DNA of 64,000 nt, from IMG/VR virus record IMGVR_UViG_3300033463_000003; one strand, 5' to 3'. The position numbers were made by a program, and so were the translations under genes. A model generated the notes under the pieces. The model searched no databases. It saw only the letters and a list, made by a program, of their open reading frames with translations, and was not told where the DNA came from. Below, in pieces: positions 26,640 to 60,080 of the stretch. How positions within the stretch are numbered: position 1 is the stretch's first letter; every line of letters starts with the position of its first letter. Origin of the DNA: a virus (Duplodnaviria; Heunggongvirae; Uroviricota; Caudoviricetes).

Positions 26640-27660
26640 TGAAAAATAAGCTGAAAATGGCCAAATTAGGAAAATTAGTTTTTTTGCTAGGTCAAATTTG
26701 GAAAGTTTCATTTTCACCTTATGGCTAATTAGGGAAATTTGGAAATTTAGGTTTTTACATAATGTATATGTAGCTTAACACACTATATAGATCTGAAATT
26801 AGTGAAATTTGGAAAATTTAGAATTTCACTAATTTTTTTATTAAAGCTAATTTGGGAAATTTCATTATGCTACATTTACCTAAAAACTTATCAAATGTAG
26901 TTTAATAAAAAAGCAAACCTGGAATCAGCCAAATTTGCCTAATTTTCGGAATTTCGTAAATTTGCTTATTTTGGGGCTTTTTATTCCTGGTAAGATAAAA
27001 TACCTACTATGTGGCTAAAATGCGATGTGGCTTGTTTTTGGAGCTTTATTTCACGTTTTAACAACATATGTATAATTGCATTTTTACCTTGACCACGAAA
27101 CTGTCCAAATTTGCCCAATTTCGTTTCCATCTTACTTACATTATACTATACAATTTTTTATCTGTAAACTTTTAATAATTTAATAATTTAATGATTTAAT
27201 AATTTATTAAAAAATAGCTAAAAAAACTATTTACAACTATTTACTTTTGTGGTATAATAAAGGTATAATGGGGAGTGTTTTTTTATAAAAAAAACGACTT
27301 TAATAAATTAATAATTTAATGTTTTAATAATTTAATAAACTAATAAATTAATAATTCATTAAAACTACTAAATACTATATTACCTACCAGAACTAAATAA
27401 TTCAATTTTTTTTAGTAATTATAGTTGAACGGAGTTCAACATGCCGTTAGGCATTATTTAGTTATACTTTTCTTTTTATATAATTTTTCTTTTACAAGAA
27501 AAATAAATGATAAAAGCTTTATATATAAAAGCATAGTAATAATAAAGAAGCTTTATATGTGCGCGCGCGTATATATTTTAATGTTTTTAATGTTTTATTA
27601 GAAAAATAATTCAATAAATCATTAAATTATTAAAAAATTAACAATTTTTTAATAATAAAG
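26640..27660. other. Candidate replication origin region
   Basis: Non-coding; phased AAATTT tracts, iterated TTTAATAA units, tandem mini-hairpins at 27424-27454; next to helicase. Confidence 0.5.
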
Positions 27661-27711
27661 GCTGTATAATATTATAGATGAAGTGTTTTAGTTATATTAG
27701 GAGATTTAGAT

Positions 27712-41803: not shown

Positions 41804-42030
41804 AATAAAAAATAAAAACCCGATAAATAAGTCGGGTTTTTATTTTTCAAAAAACTATCGGAACTAAATTTTTATCAGACATCCCGACCCTGTACGGGTA
41901 ACTTTTTACTAAATTAGTGGTTTTTAGCTTTCCGCCAGATTCATCAGATTCGGCGGAAGTTAATTTTGGAAAAAAAGAGTTTACAAATTGGTTAATATGT
42001 GGTATAATATAATAAGAGCGAGGTATAATT

Positions 42031-43182: not shown

Positions 43183-43401
43183 TTCTTTATTCATATATAC
43201 TTCCTTTCGGTAAAAGGTCAGGCTGTGGTCTGGCTTTTTATTTTGCAAAACTATCGGAACTAAAAATTTACGTTCTGTGATCCCGATGTTGAAGCTAAAA
43301 CCACTAAAAGTGGTGAGTCACGGTCGAGGGCCGCGGTCTGCGCAGATTCATCTAGATATGTGGATCGAAAAACTGTATAATATAATAGAGAGGTTTTTAT
43401 T

Positions 43402-46639: not shown

Positions 46640-47533
46640 ATGGCAAATGAACTTTTTGTGCAGTCAAGAACTTATGCACAGCTATTAAAACAGAATAAGG
46701 GCATTGACTATTCCACTTGTAATGTAGATACATTAGCAGATGGTTATTGTGATGCAACAGATGCTGGAGATGAATATGAAAGAACATTATTTATTTCCGG
46801 ACTTGTTTTACGTTTTTGGTTTGCAGTAAAGAAGATGCAAGAGAAGTCACCGAATTTAGGATATGATCAAGACGAATTCGCTGACTGGCTTTATGAAGCA
46901 CTAGAATATGCATGTAAATACAGAGCATGGCGCGATCCTGATAAAAAAGTAAATGCGCAACAGGCAATAAATCAATGTATTGAAACTATCAGGCTCCAGC
47001 ATTATTATCAGCTAAATTTACAAAAACATAAAACTAATTTTAGCACTATTTCACTTGATACTCCTGTCGCAGGAACAGATGAAGAATCATTAACTTTATT
47101 TGACCAAACAGAAGATGAACAAGCAGAACAAGATATGAAAGAAACTAAAGGTGCACTTACAGCTCGTGCGATCGTGCAAGCTTTTATCGATAAGAAAGAT
47201 TTAGTGGGTGCAGTTATATCGGACCTCATCGCGTTCAATGATTTCAATAAAGAAATTAAGACAACTAATAAATTTATTGATGATGAAACTGGTGAAGAAT
47301 GCAAAACTACTAACTACAGTTATGAGTTTTGGCCATTCAAAGCAGTTCAAGCAATGAAGGAACTTCCAAATGATTATGCAGAGTATTTTATTGAAAACTA
47401 CAATGTTAAACCAGAAGCTATTATTGCAGTAATAGAGGCCATTAGACGCGCGAATAGTGCTAAACTATATAAATACTTAAGAGACTTTTTAAGTAAGGCT
47501 AAAACTACGTTTAAATATCAGGAGGCTTGTTAA
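46640..47533 (+). CDS. Putative phage sigma-factor-like protein
   Basis: Region-2-like DQDEFADWLYEALEYACKY and region-3-like TISLDTPVAGTDEESLTLFDQ. Confidence 0.5.
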   Translation: MANELFVQSRTYAQLLKQNKGIDYSTCNVDTLADGYCDATDAGDEYERTLFISGLVLRFWFAVKKMQEKSPNLGYDQDEFADWLYEALEYACKYRAWRDPDKKVNAQQAINQCIETIRLQHYYQLNLQKHKTNFSTISLDTPVAGTDEESLTLFDQTEDEQAEQDMKETKGALTARAIVQAFIDKKDLVGAVISDLIAFNDFNKEIKTTNKFIDDETGEECKTTNYSYEFWPFKAVQAMKELPNDYAEYFIENYNVKPEAIIAVIEAIRRANSAKLYKYLRDFLSKAKTTFKYQEAC

Positions 47534-48528: not shown

Positions 48529-48766
48529 ATTAGACCTTCCTTCAAGCTCAGCAGAATATCACTGTTGAGCTTTTTATTTTGCGTACAGTACGATGTACAG
48601 TACGTACAGTACAGCTACAGTACTTCCTGAAATTCCACTAATAAGTAGTTTATTGGGTCACCATAAATTCGATGTTGATGTGTGTGGTTTGTGGAAATAA
48701 AAATTAACAACTAACTATTTACATTTAGGGTCAGTTGTGTTATAATAATAATGTGAGGTAAATAAT

Positions 48767-48940
48767 ATGAGTTCAATTGTTAAAAAGTTAATTCAAGAGA
48801 CGTGGGTCGACTACTTCTCCGGAAACAAAGAAGAAATCTTAAAACAAGTTGATAAAGAAGCATTGGAAGAATATCAAAGTGCAATGTTGAGACTTGAAAC
48901 TGATTTTGATTTTCAAAGAGAGTTAGGAATTGGAAACTAA
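48767..48940 (+). CDS. Early hypothetical protein, 57 aa (not in track)
   Basis: Promoter 48718 plus SD GAGGT. Confidence 0.6.
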   Translation: MSSIVKKLIQETWVDYFSGNKEEILKQVDKEALEEYQSAMLRLETDFDFQRELGIGN

Positions 48941-48941
48941 T

Positions 48942-49319
48942 ATGCCTATTGATTATAATGATTGGAAAGAGTTTGTTCAAGGCAAATTAAATTGTAAGGT
49001 AAAACAAGAAGATAAAGTTCGAACTTGTATAAGGCTTGATACTCAAACTTTAATTAACTCATTAGACGGGGAGTCAAAACAGTACGTTTTGGACGTTGCA
49101 AAAGGGCAGGCAGAGAAGTATGGAAATCTAAATGTCTGGTCTGCGGTAATTTATGACTATCATGTTGAAATAAATATGGGTGAATGGTTTATTGCTGTTT
49201 ACTTTAGTCCAGAAACTCATAATGCAACTAACTGGGTTGGAAATGCAAGAGGTTCAAAGTTTGAACTACAACTTCTACAAATTGCAAAAGAACTTCATCA
49301 ACAACTTCAAGATTTATAA
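48942..49319 (+). CDS. Early hypothetical protein
   Basis: Coupled to previous gene; terminator follows. Confidence 0.65.
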   Translation: MPIDYNDWKEFVQGKLNCKVKQEDKVRTCIRLDTQTLINSLDGESKQYVLDVAKGQAEKYGNLNVWSAVIYDYHVEINMGEWFIAVYFSPETHNATNWVGNARGSKFELQLLQIAKELHQQLQDL

Positions 49320-49344
49320 GAACTGAAACTTCAGTTCTTTTTTT

Positions 49345-49715
49345 TATTCCAATAAAAATTCGATCCGCCGAAATTGATGAATCTGGCAGAAAGTCAAATC
49401 CAACTAAATTAGTGAAATTGTACTATCTTCGTTCCTGATCAGATTTTGAGGTGACAAGTCTGATGAAGAGTTCGGTAAGACTGATGATTGTACAGATGAA
49501 TTCCGATGTTGTACAGATGAAAAAGCTTTTTAGTGGTTTTTTAGCCTGATGCATGTACGATGCGCAGCGTACTGCAGAGCGAACTGCGCAGACGATTCCG
49601 ATCCTGTAACAGGATCTGCGCAGATGAATTAGAATCGTTTAGTAGTTAGTGGTTTTAACTTCACCTCCACATGAATTCGGAAATTTTTCGTGGCATATTG
49701 GTTTAGTCGAAAAAA
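49345..49715. repeat. Non-coding palindrome-rich island with three TTAGTG-core motifs
   Basis: Cores at 49409, 49530, 49646. Confidence 0.65.
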
Positions 49716-49781
49716 AGTTAATTTGGTTATTTACAAATTAAGACTAATATGGTATAATATAATAAAGAGAGGAAAAGAAAT

Positions 49782-50225
49782 ATGAAACCAAAAAGAACTG
49801 CAATTACAAATTATTATGATTGTTATGAAGTCGGTTATATTAAATTAGGTTGCGTTGGTAATGGTAATCCAGACCATCAAGATAGAACAGTTATTACCAG
49901 AACATTAAATCTTGGTGGTGTTCAAAGACTTGCTAATGTCTACGGAATTAAATTTGTAAACAATGATGATATTTACGCAACTGGTTATTATATAAAAGAA
50001 GTTGAAACAACCAAAGACCCTGATACTTTTGTAAATGAATTAGATAAACTAGATGAAGTATTTATGGAAGAAGCGGAATATAGACAAGCACTTAAACAAA
50101 TTCGTCAAATGTCAGACACACTAAATTATGGTGTATTATCTGAAGATGAGTGGAATAAGCTATCAAAAGAACTAGATGTTCTTGTTGAAAGGTCAAAAGA
50201 ATTAGACAGAAAACTTCATTATTAA
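49782..50225 (+). CDS. Early hypothetical protein
   Basis: Promoter plus SD. Confidence 0.7.
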   Translation: MKPKRTAITNYYDCYEVGYIKLGCVGNGNPDHQDRTVITRTLNLGGVQRLANVYGIKFVNNDDIYATGYYIKEVETTKDPDTFVNELDKLDEVFMEEAEYRQALKQIRQMSDTLNYGVLSEDEWNKLSKELDVLVERSKELDRKLHY

Positions 50226-50308
50226 GTTGGTAAATAAATACCAACTTTTTATTTACAAAGTCGACATTATGTGGTATAATATAAATATAAGAAAGAAGGA
50301 AACTAATT

Positions 50309-50524
50309 ATGACATTAAGAGATAGTTTGTTAAAAAAAGTTCCGGCAGATAATTATGTTAAAATTTATGACGAGGACTGGTTTGTCGCAATGTGTTATGT
50401 TGATGATGAAGATTTATTCATTAGATATATGGACGACGAATTATTAAGTCGTGAAGTTGACATTATTACAATGGTTGAAGATGGAGATTTTACAACTGAT
50501 ATTTATGATATTTATTTGAAGTAG
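50309..50524 (+). CDS. Early acidic protein
   Basis: Promoter plus SD. Confidence 0.65.
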   Translation: MTLRDSLLKKVPADNYVKIYDEDWFVAMCYVDDEDLFIRYMDDELLSREVDIITMVEDGDFTTDIYDIYLK

Positions 50525-50534
50525 GAAATAAATT

Positions 50535-50663
50535 ATGGAAATGTTAAGTAAGATTATAATTCAATTATTGGCATGCTTCATTGGTTGGCAAATTGGTAAA
50601 TTTATCGCAATTAAAATAATGATAAGAAAGGCAATGAAAGAAAACAATGAAGAAGAATTATAA
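50535..50663 (+). CDS. Small membrane protein, 42 aa (not in track)
   Basis: IIIQLLACFIGWQIGKFIAI hydrophobic segment. Confidence 0.5.
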   Translation: MEMLSKIIIQLLACFIGWQIGKFIAIKIMIRKAMKENNEEEL

Positions 50664-50787
50664 AGTTATTGTTTTGAATATGGGGGAGGAACTTGAAACT
50701 CTACATTATCATAAAACAATAAAGCAAATTAAAAAACAATATAATCTTGAGAAACTTGAGATTGTATCTATTGAAGAGATTAACTAA
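50647..50787 (+). CDS. Small hypothetical protein, 46 aa (not in track)
   Basis: Open frame ending in a terminator hairpin. Confidence 0.4.
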   Translation: MKKNYKVIVLNMGEELETLHYHKTIKQIKKQYNLEKLEIVSIEEIN

Positions 50788-51043
50788 ATTGGTTAATCTT
50801 TTTTATTTACAAAGTTGGTAAGTCGCGCTACGATGTACATGATGAATGTAGATGAAAGCTTTTAATTCCACTAAAAGAAAGTTAAGCTAATATATCTGAT
50901 GCAGCTGTACGAGATGCTCTTGAAATTGGACTGATTTGAACTTCACAAGAAATTCGAAGAGTTGAAAAAAAGTTAATTTGGCTATTTACAAGTTGGGGTA
51001 AATATGGTATAATATAATAAAGAGAAGAGAGGAAATAAAATTT

Positions 51044-51370
51044 ATGAAATTTAGAAACTATCATCAAGTCTTAAAAGCAAGAGGTTATAAGGTAAGGGAG
51101 TTGTCAAAGTATCAAGGTTTAAATGTATTCGAGAAAGAACATTTATATAATAAGATAGTTTGCACAATTATGAAAGATAGTCACGGCAAGGGGCAAACAA
51201 TAACTTTCAATATCTACAATACTCTTAGAACTCCAAAGAATATGATTGAGTTTGGAGACGCCGAATTTGATAGAAGTTATCTTGTTAAAGAGGCTAAAGT
51301 TATTGTTGAGGCTTTTGAGAAACTAAGAGAGATGAAAGCACCTGTAAAATATATTTATTGTTTCAATTAA
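51044..51370 (+). CDS. Early hypothetical protein
   Basis: Promoter plus SD. Confidence 0.7.
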   Translation: MKFRNYHQVLKARGYKVRELSKYQGLNVFEKEHLYNKIVCTIMKDSHGKGQTITFNIYNTLRTPKNMIEFGDAEFDRSYLVKEAKVIVEAFEKLREMKAPVKYIYCFN

Positions 51371-51399
51371 GGTTAGATGAAAATCTAATCTTTTTTTAT

Positions 51400-51855
51400 T
51401 TACATTTGTCTAAGAATATGCTATCATGTACATGATGAAGCTGGATCACAGCTTCTTTTTTCACTAAAGAGAAGTCATAGCTTCACAGACTGATCAGCTG
51501 AACAGACTGTAGAAGTCGAACTTGAGCAGTCGAACTGATCTGATGAATTCAGATGAAAGCTTTTGTGAAGCTAAATTAGTGGTTTTAACTTCAGATGCAT
51601 GTACGATTGTACGATGTTGTAGAACTGTAACTCACAGATTGTAACTGTTACAGTCACAGCTGTACAGATCAGATGCGTAGATGCAGAAGCTAATTAGTGG
51701 TTTTTATACAAGCTACATGTACGATGTAGATGTACATGAATACAGTTCGAGAGCATGACTACAGATACTGTTACAGCTACAGTGCGATGTAGATGTAGAT
51801 GAAGCTAATTAGTGAAACATTGGATAAGCAGATCAGATTCTTGAGATGCTCGTGA
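51400..51855. repeat. Non-coding palindrome-rich island with GAAGCTAA(A)TTAGTG repeats
   Basis: Cores at 51576, 51694, 51809; inverted half-site at 51462. Confidence 0.7.
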
Positions 51856-51942
51856 TAATAAAATAAAAAATATTTCAACTTGCTATTTACAAATAATTAA
51901 AAACATGTTATAATATATATAGAAAGTGAGGTAAGACAAATT

Positions 51943-52218
51943 ATGAATCTTACAAAAGTTAATGGTTGTTATTCTAAAGAACTAAGAGAAGCAACAACTG
52001 ATATTAAATTATTATTAAAAGAAAGAACAGTCGACGTTGAGACAATGAGAGAGTTTGTTAATACTATCATTGAGCCGGCATTTATAGAAGCAAAAGCCAA
52101 AGCAAGATTTAAAGAAAATCTAAATGCCTGTCAAACAAAAGAAGAGATTGATAATCTTTGTTATATGGCAGTCATTCATGGAATGTATTATACTCCACAT
52201 AAAAAAGTTAATTGTTAA
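51943..52218 (+). CDS. Early hypothetical protein
   Basis: Promoter plus SD. Confidence 0.7.
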   Translation: MNLTKVNGCYSKELREATTDIKLLLKERTVDVETMREFVNTIIEPAFIEAKAKARFKENLNACQTKEEIDNLCYMAVIHGMYYTPHKKVNC

Positions 52219-52812
52219 TGTTCCATATAGTTTCTCTTTTTGCGGGAAGTCGAAGAACTAAAAACTCTTCGGCTTTTTCTTTTGTCCAATTAGAAGTCGA
52301 GCTTCTCGTTTGTGATCAGCGCGTGAGAATCTAAGAAGCTAATTAGTGGTTTTAGTTTAAGCTGTACAATCTGATACTGTACGTGGATCGAAATTCTGCC
52401 TCGCGACTAATTAGTATGTAGAAGTAAAAGACAGATACTATATATGTAGCAGATCGAAGTTGGATAATATATAGATAAATTTAGTAATATATATGTTTAC
52501 ATGCATGTAAGTTATAGCATAAAAGTAGCTAAATGTAAAGAGTAATATTGGTATATAGATAGTATATATGGGTCTAGATATAGTATATATTAGGCTAGAT
52601 CATAGCTATTTTGGGCTATAAAAAAGGCACTAAAAAAGCCCATAATCTGGCGTAGGGGCGGGGCTAATTTTGGCACCCTTAGCGTTTGTCCTAGAGAGCA
52701 ATATTTTTTCGTACGTACGCGCGCACACGCCTATACGCATAAAAAGAAGAGCAGCAAAATGAGCTGCAAAAAATTATTGTCTTTACTGTATAATATATAA
52801 GAGGTTTAAAGT

Positions 52813-59624: not shown

Positions 59625-60080
59625 ATGAAGAAAACATGTTTTAATTGTAGTCATTTTCATGGCTGTTTAGCTGAAGAAGACCCTTCTCAATATCATATCC
59701 ATAACTATTGCGATGTTTTTGAAAAGATCTTACCTTTTGATATGGATAGTGAAGTTAATCATTTTTTAGAAAGTTATTGGACAACAATGTGTAAGGCATC
59801 GATTAACTGCGACTATGGAGTTAATGATGATTATGAAACAGGTGAAGCTTTTTGTTGGTTATTTAAAGAGGCAGATAAGCCATTTTGGCCCGACGAGAGG
59901 TTTAAAGAAAATAGAGAACATAATAAGGAATTAGCTATTAAAACTTTAGAATATATGTTTGAAAAAGACGAAGTCTGGGATGAATTTGATGAATATACTT
60001 GGCACAAATTAGATGACTATTTTGATGATGAAGAGTTAGACTATCTAAGAGATTTATTAAAGAGATTAAAAAATGAGTAG
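59625..60080 (+). CDS. Cys-rich hypothetical protein
   Basis: CFNCSHF; ATG a few nt after TGTATAAT (leaderless-like). Confidence 0.65.
   Translation: MKKTCFNCSHFHGCLAEEDPSQYHIHNYCDVFEKILPFDMDSEVNHFLESYWTTMCKASINCDYGVNDDYETGEAFCWLFKEADKPFWPDERFKENREHNKELAIKTLEYMFEKDEVWDEFDEYTWHKLDDYFDDEELDYLRDLLKRLKNE

Follow-up and report, generated by a model that had tools for sequence, protein, structure and literature searches.

Conserved gene-free islands with a short asymmetric box in the early module of an uncultured phage: a possible protein-binding DNA array

We analyzed a 64,000-nucleotide stretch of an uncultured tailed phage (IMG/VR record IMGVR_UViG_3300033463_000003; hereafter, the window) and found that the gene-free islands scattered among its early genes are a real, conserved, non-coding system. 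The islands carry a short asymmetric box that recurs in the early modules of related phages, mostly at a characteristic distance past the upstream terminator. A first-pass annotation made from the letters of the window had read the islands as an array of binding sites for a dimeric protein, separated by spacer DNA of defined length. Our analysis supports this interpretation in part. Most likely, the islands serve as an array of protein-binding DNA by which the early gene cassettes are insulated or regulated, a reading to which we assign a probability of roughly 0.4.

The box and its islands

The window has a guanine-plus-cytosine (GC) content of ~31%, and almost all of its genes lie on the plus strand. 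No close match and no near-identical record were found among deposited phages. The window encodes phage-type functions, namely NrdD, an SNF2 helicase, and an EcoRI-type adenine methylase, and the set of genes in it resembles that of a virulent phage. Small genes make up an early module at ~37.5–52.4 kb, where 12 sites match the promoter sequence TTTACA-17-TATAAT at 11 or all 12 positions, 11 of the 12 with an extended TG, and where intrinsic terminators close most of the cassettes. About 1.5 kb of this 15-kb module (roughly 10%) is conserved non-coding DNA, and no plus-strand open reading frame (ORF) of 60 or more residues under genetic code 11 was found in the islands.

The 11-mer TTAGTGGTTTT occurs in seven exact copies in the window, all of them inside islands, and the 14 matches with at most one mismatch were not reached by any of 100 shuffles. 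The degenerate family form of the box, TTAGTGRWWTT, occurs 14 times in the window compared with 1.05 ± 0.94 expected, and 10 of the 14 copies lie inside the seven islands. The TTAGTG cores reported by the first-pass annotation on the plus strand were recovered at 49409, 49530, and 49646 (gaps of 121 and 116 bp), at 51576, 51694, and 51809 (gaps of 118 and 115 bp), and at 52343, as were the inverted CACTAA copies at 48636, 50869, 51462, and 43302, the last of which had been placed near 43292. Across the relatives, the conserved box is the asymmetric A(T/A)TTAGTG(G/A)AATTT, with TTAGTG(G/A)AATTT as its core. In the window phage, the box is mostly TTAGTGGTTTT with GCTAA(A) directly 5′ of it, and the resulting CTAA(A)TTAG near-palindrome is peculiar to this phage; the two inverted copies at 48631 and 50864 follow the family form. 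The palindromic site proposed for a dimeric protein is not supported, as the conserved core is asymmetric and tandem box doublets with a period of 8–9 bp are common in the relatives. Exact inverted pairs of boxes also occur (5644/5651 in the related contig L011 and 26799/26822 in the window). Overall, 39 boxes lie on the plus strand and 13 on the minus strand (~3:1; 75% plus).

The relatives are metagenomic contigs fetched through two early proteins of the window, one of 297 residues (46640–47533; ~400 metagenomic relatives) and one of 108 residues (51044–51370; 16 metagenomic relatives). Judging by the contig names, we take several of them to come from rumen metagenomes of the Joint Genome Institute. 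Box-bearing islands were found in L010, L011, L012, L013, L015, L018, L021, L025, L028, and L030, with an identity of the anchor protein down to ~50%, and were not seen in two more distant loci, L029 (GC 41%) and L031. The early cassettes are shuffled between the window (40–52 kb) and L010, L011, and L012, with the same small genes standing in another order beside other neighbors. The arrangement common to the related loci is a terminator, a gene-free island, and then the next strong sigma-A-type early promoter. Only short words align between the islands of different phages. Short contigs of relatives often end within the island zone. In the wider collection of viral contigs, a motif scan gave nine single chance matches and no array, and a protein-anchored scan gave no match. 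The islands are shared by at least 10 related contigs, and a translated search (blastx) against the ORFs of all relatives returned only self-hits. None of the outcomes that the first-pass annotation had named as speaking against it, i.e., random motif spacing genome-wide, absence of the islands from close relatives, or alignment to decayed ORFs, was observed.

The position of the box within the island is equally regular. In ~21 of 30 islands, the first box lies 55–72 bp past the T-run of the upstream terminator, on either strand; in the window, the distances are 72 and 63 bp for plus copies and 62, 60, 64, and 64 bp for minus copies. The last box is commonly 66–85 bp 5′ of the next −35 element, and between the two, later boxes repeat every ~100–120 bp. 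The unit length is 115–121 bp in the window, mostly 97–98 bp in L011, and 77–126 bp overall, so the fixed spacer of 11 helical turns that had been proposed is not supported. The claim that the islands lengthen toward 52.4 kb applies only loosely (121, 125, 121, 371, 156, 456, and 141 bp in order). In most cases, an island is enclosed by an intrinsic terminator and the promoter that follows, and it lacks a promoter of its own. At the start of the islands, the T-run of the terminator merges into a −35 word, TTTAC(A/T).

Duplex DNA or RNA

Could the islands act as double-stranded DNA, or are they transcribed and active as RNA? The linkers between the boxes are built from recurring words, as the first-pass annotation had noticed: GTAC occurs 23 times in the islands, compared with 3.1 expected at the rate of the rest of the window, and TGTACA occurs 8 times compared with 0.33. 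The islands are also richer in GC than the rest of the window (38.6% vs. 31.7%), and the GC content dips at the box and rises on either side of it. Strongly enriched island words are GTAC, TGTACA, GATC, TCGA, and words containing CG. Besides the box, the family conserves GATG words, TGTAC(A/G), GATC, and CAGCTG. The vocabulary common to five phages comprises TTAGTG, CTGATCAG, CAGCTG, and TGTACA, together with the strand-biased CGATGT, TACGAT, ACAGAT, and GTAGAT. Adjacent units resemble each other no more than distant units do, which indicates that the arrays are not recent duplications and that the box persists while the linkers turn over.

Several features favor duplex DNA. Because the first box is fixed in position but free in orientation, it argues against an RNA motif and for recognition as duplex DNA. 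Perfect palindromes of at least 8 bp without a loop number 21 in the islands compared with 6.9 ± 2.4 in shuffles, an approximately threefold enrichment that was found in two phages, and inverted repeats number 51 compared with 20 ± 4.4. The imperfect stems contain seven G-T and eight A-C mismatches and thus no G-U bias. Spacings from one GATG word to another, taken over 77 sites in five phages, follow a 10.5-bp phase (z = 3.6). Taken together, the loop-less palindromes, the missing G-U bias, and the ~10.5-bp phasing favor double-stranded DNA that is bound by protein. We also count for duplex DNA the inverted box pairs, the 8–9-bp tandem doublets, and the finding that the minus strand exceeds its shuffles in predicted folding at least as much as the plus strand does (z = −5.4 and −3.8, respectively).

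On this basis, the islands can be pictured as DNA elements that act in cis, are built from modules, and belong to the early (host-takeover) module of what may be a clade of uncultured rumen phages. One module would consist of a ~12-bp asymmetric box in an AT-rich dip, flanked by ~100–120 bp of GC-richer DNA that is made up of short perfect palindromes and strand-biased GATG-type words. A conserved protein, from the phage or from the host, may bind the box as double-stranded DNA, and each bound box might organize ~100–120 bp through oligomerization or wrapping. The resulting nucleoprotein blocks, placed between very strong co-directional early promoters, would insulate or regulate early transcription, possibly by shutting it off, by acting as a roadblock to read-through, or by handling the supercoiling that transcription drives. 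A more specific version, in which the boxes nucleate a phage-specified chromatin-like array whose complexes each wrap or cover ~100–120 bp and serve as topological and transcriptional barriers or gyrase sinks, or in staged genome entry, seems to us rather unlikely.

Which protein might bind the box? The 108-residue early protein (51044–51370, plus strand) is a candidate. In every relative, its gene stands at most one gene upstream of an island, and each of the four box-positive loci tested has a member of its family of 105–108 residues, whereas neither of the two box-negative ones does. It is the sole L011 gene with such a pattern in a comparison that sampled ~20 kb per locus, with the genes of L011 as reference. 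As the gene both tracks the box system and adjoins islands, it is a candidate partner by association only. Its confident AlphaFold model (predicted local distance difference test score, pLDDT, of 90) has an alpha/beta fold with a short helix, a four-stranded sheet, and a long helix.

A number of observations weigh against protein-bound duplex DNA. The 108-residue model had no Foldseek match at E ≤ 0.001, and its best VIA-align score (Z of 7.1) does not exceed what common arrangements give and is uninformative. Pfam and PHROG scans of 20 early and 20 larger window proteins found no DNA-binding, RNA-binding, or partition domain, so the 20 early proteins offer no recognizable DNA binder. The phasing of GATG is only moderately significant after multiple testing (estimated p ~0.01 after correction for 66 tests), the unit length is not quantized in helical turns, and a GC periodicity around the box, of the type seen in gyrase motifs, was not significant. 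Furthermore, the island words are strand-specific (GATG 31 vs. CATC 3; CGATG 9 vs. 0 for its complement; TACGAT 12:1; GTAGAT 11:1), which, together with the predominance of plus-strand boxes, fits RNA or a directional DNA process. Lastly, five islands carry a good sigma-A-type promoter (50806 and 51399 in the window, 5774 in L010, 17898 in L011, and 16355 in L028) of the form TTTAC[AT]-16/17-TGnTATCAT or TACGAT, and the initial transcribed words of the promoter-bearing islands are conserved between distant phages.

These promoters make an RNA role the main rival reading, in which the islands would be non-coding RNA genes or leaders that the host RNA polymerase transcribes early, either from weakened promoters within them or by reading through a terminator; each 100–120-nt module would show UUAGUG(G/A)AAUUU to an RNA-binding factor as a sponge, decoy, or processing unit. 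In these five islands, the T-run is merged with a surviving −35 element, which places the first box at about +28 to +35, and phages with anchor proteins of only 50–80% identity have the start words GTACATGATGAAGCT and GGTTGATGATTGT in common. The strand bias of words and boxes agrees with such a reading, and the 8–9-nt tandem doublets would suit an RNA-binding protein. On the other hand, a quarter of the boxes are inverted at an unchanged position, the stems lack a G-U bias, and the palindromes are mostly loop-less and unable to fold as RNA hairpins. Hairpins bracketing the box were found at 23% of boxes compared with 14% of control positions, without overall enrichment, even though a few striking box-in-loop hairpins with covarying stems exist in L011 (14562, 16481, and 12205). 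Moreover, no Rfam or transfer RNA (tRNA) match was obtained, a terminator hairpin directly follows the promoter of the sixth island, and most islands lack a promoter. We place an RNA function next in probability, below protein-bound duplex DNA. A role of the islands as DNA in genome entry or at a genome end, such as a T5-like injection stop or an oriented Chi-like protection, would require that the early module is, or adjoins, a terminal repeat. The restriction of the islands to the early module, their greatest density at its distal end beside a conserved element (52430–52800), and the one-strand bias of words and boxes, which fits a directional translocation or nuclease process, are compatible with this idea; it is made improbable by the presence of boxes in both orientations, by island sequences without the conservation of the T5 regions, and by the failure to find the DnaA-box pairs typical of T5 (8 DnaA boxes in the window, 0 in the islands).

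Could the islands instead be fast-evolving filler or selfish DNA, scars of cassette shuffling or small mobile repeats with the box as a recombination or transposition end? The mosaic gene order of the early module between relatives would be expected, each island begins at a standard terminator/−35 junction, often with a decayed −10 element, and inverted boxes 100–140 bp apart flank some units. However, the box, the vocabulary, and the geometry are kept at ~50% protein identity although the linkers cannot be aligned; the GC content of the islands exceeds that of the genome, and their palindromes and phasing are non-random; and no transposase or homing-nuclease gene accompanies them in the early modules examined. 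We consider this origin improbable. A resemblance to promoters was considered as well. Nine plus-strand sites upstream of genes outside the early module (5248, 17508, 25766, 31003, 33810, 55973, 57539, 61161, and 61793) share T-rich DNA followed by GCTAAATTAT, and the same word occurs in L011 and L012; it is probably a phage-specific middle or late promoter. The boxes might then be copies or decoys of the promoter GCTAAATTA, bound by the late machinery for read-through or titration. The island copy at 51570 contains the exact late-promoter 9-mer, three other copies are short by one A, and TAGTGA follows two late promoters (61793 in the window and 20113 in L012). Yet the boxes of the relatives lack GCTAA while the same promoter is in use, which makes the resemblance lineage-specific and no explanation of the box system. 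The island copies also lack the upstream T-run, most have no following gene, and none of the GCTAAATTA-type copies directly precedes a gene, so we consider a decoy very improbable. The leading example of the first-pass annotation, a partition centromere, is unlikely: regularly spaced box arrays do resemble sopC-type centromeres, but the sites are dispersed over at least seven islands of a lytic-type early module instead of forming one compact array, the box is asymmetric, the units cannot be aligned outside it, and no ParA-, ParB-, ParM-, or TubZ-like domain was found in the proteins scanned from the 64-kb window.

The individual islands and other gene-free regions

All seven islands are listed here on the plus strand of the window. 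Island 1 (41850–41970) has one plus box at 41914–41924, 72 bp past the terminator T-run and 66 bp before the −35 element at 41980. Island 2 (43246–43370) has one minus box at 43297–43307, 62 bp past the T-run, and begins with a ATCGGAACTAAA-type word. Island 3 (48580–48700) has one minus box of the family type (TTAGTGGAATT) at 48631–48641, which lies 60 bp past the terminator (48544–48572) and 82 bp before the −35 element at 48718. Island 4 (49345–49715) contains the plus boxes at 49409, 49530, and 49646, the first of them 63 bp past the terminator (49318–49339) and the last 84 bp before the −35 element at 49730. Island 5 (50806–50965) starts with a promoter-like TTTACA-17-TACGAT (50806–50834) and the conserved start word GTACATGATGAA, and its single minus box (50864–50874) is at about +28 from the predicted transcription start. 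In island 6 (51399–51855), a promoter, TTTACA-17-TGnTATCAT (51399–51427), is followed by a hairpin with a run of six T (51437–51461), the minus core at 51462, and the plus boxes at 51576, 51694, and 51809. Island 7 (52290–52430) has a plus box at 52343–52353 and an extra CTAATTAG at 52407, and it adjoins the non-coding element at 52430–52800. The ATCGGAACTAAA-type word is conserved directly after the terminator in a subset of islands only (41854–41874 and 43250–43270 in the window, 13258 in L011, 5990 and 14165 in L028), which suggests that there are several types of island leader.

The element directly 3′ of island 7 (52430–52800) is itself conserved and non-coding. It contains, in order, TATATA-type iteron-like words, a GC-rich block (GGCACTAAAAAAGCCCATAATCTGGCG, GGGGCGGGG, and CGTACG/CGCGCG), and a promoter; the GC-rich block can be aligned with L010, L018, L025, and L028 despite different flanking genes. 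Candidate identities of this element are an origin, a pac site, and a repeat boundary. Outside the early module, a further gene-free stretch of ~1 kb (26640–27700) resembles an origin. It has 8 G(G/A)AATTT words per kb, several GC(T/C)AAATT(A/T)RG words, a strong promoter near 27228, TTTAATAA repeats, and the inverted pair of full family-type boxes (26799–26832), in which the 12-bp TTAGTGAAATT is followed by its complement. The ORF at 60073–61107 matches the EcoRI-type adenine methyltransferase family (PF13651, E = 5e-21), and GAATTC is among the palindromes enriched in the islands of three phages.

Several other identities were considered and rejected. Neither the window nor L010–L012 yielded a tRNA or a decayed tRNA array, and no credible match to a described structured RNA family was found in Rfam at gathering or relaxed thresholds. 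Reading TGA as tryptophan (code 4) revealed only short ORFs that bore no consistent relationship to the boxes, and a decayed-ORF origin was dismissed, as a translated comparison with the ORFs of the window and of the relatives brought no similarity to light. Outside the islands, palindromes of 4 and 6 bp are depleted only mildly in the window (observed/expected 0.7–1.0); consequently, the contrast that a restriction-site decoy requires is missing. Recent tandem duplication is ruled out by the equal similarity of adjacent and distant units. CRISPR (clustered regularly interspaced short palindromic repeats) arrays have near-identical repeats of 23–55 nt, unique spacers of similar length, and cas genes. 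The islands have a conserved core of ~12 nt and "spacers" of 65–110 nt made of shared low-complexity words, and none of the proteins scanned gave a cas-like match.

Comparison with known systems

The early modules of phages are usually read as tight arrays of small host-takeover genes, and the islands depart from that picture. If the chromatin-like barriers were real, they would keep a dozen very strong early promoters, all pointing the same way, from interfering with each other when they fire, an undescribed way for a virulent phage to organize its host-takeover module. Whether the islands are a DNA scaffold, an insulator, or RNA, they offer a testable handle on how the first-expressed phage DNA is controlled or protected.

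The PeSL (promoter-early stem-loop) cassettes of T4-type phages are the promoter/terminator junctions themselves. Like them, the islands involve promoter/terminator junctions that border small shuffled early genes, with a gene order that is mosaic between relatives; unlike them, the islands are extra box-bearing DNA of 120–460 bp at a subset of such junctions. The stoperators of cluster A mycobacteriophages are single sites in one orientation relative to transcription, occur in temperate phages with a known repressor, and are thought to let the bound protein block the elongating polymerase. Both stoperators and boxes are short asymmetric sites scattered in the intergenic DNA of one transcriptional module. 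The boxes differ in that 25% of them are inverted and in that they form arrays with periods of 100–120 bp.

The islands also recall the repetitive extragenic palindrome (REP) arrays, or bacterial interspersed mosaic elements (BIMEs), of enterobacteria, which include strong gyrase sites in BIME-2; gyrase has a footprint of 130 bp and is attracted to DNA downstream of highly transcribed units (PMC6379681). In both cases, extragenic mosaic arrays follow transcription units, with units in either orientation, and the unit length of the islands is near the gyrase footprint; as to mechanism, these arrays and gyrase offer an analogy. In contrast, the REP unit is an imperfect palindrome of ~35 nt that forms a stem-loop, whereas the island box is asymmetric, is not bracketed by stems more often than control positions, and shows no significant GC periodicity around it; the GATG words, for their part, are phased.

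Of the situations described so far, phage T5 comes closest, with untranslated repeat regions interspersed with its pre-early genes. In the left terminal repeat of T5, Untranslated Repeat Regions 1–3 are a candidate injection stop signal, are highly conserved in sequence and order, and contain paired DnaA boxes (Davison, bioRxiv 10.1101/866236). In both phages, several stretches devoid of genes (188 bp to 1.2 kb long in T5) lie between the small genes that are expressed first, these stretches are rich in repeats and palindromes, and their role is inferred in T5 and in the islands alike. On the other hand, the islands conserve only the 12-bp box and the word vocabulary, and the DnaA-type word TTWTNCACA occurs 8 times in the window compared with 12.9 expected and is absent from the islands. 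The islands thus provide a comparison case for the long-unexplained T5 repeat regions.

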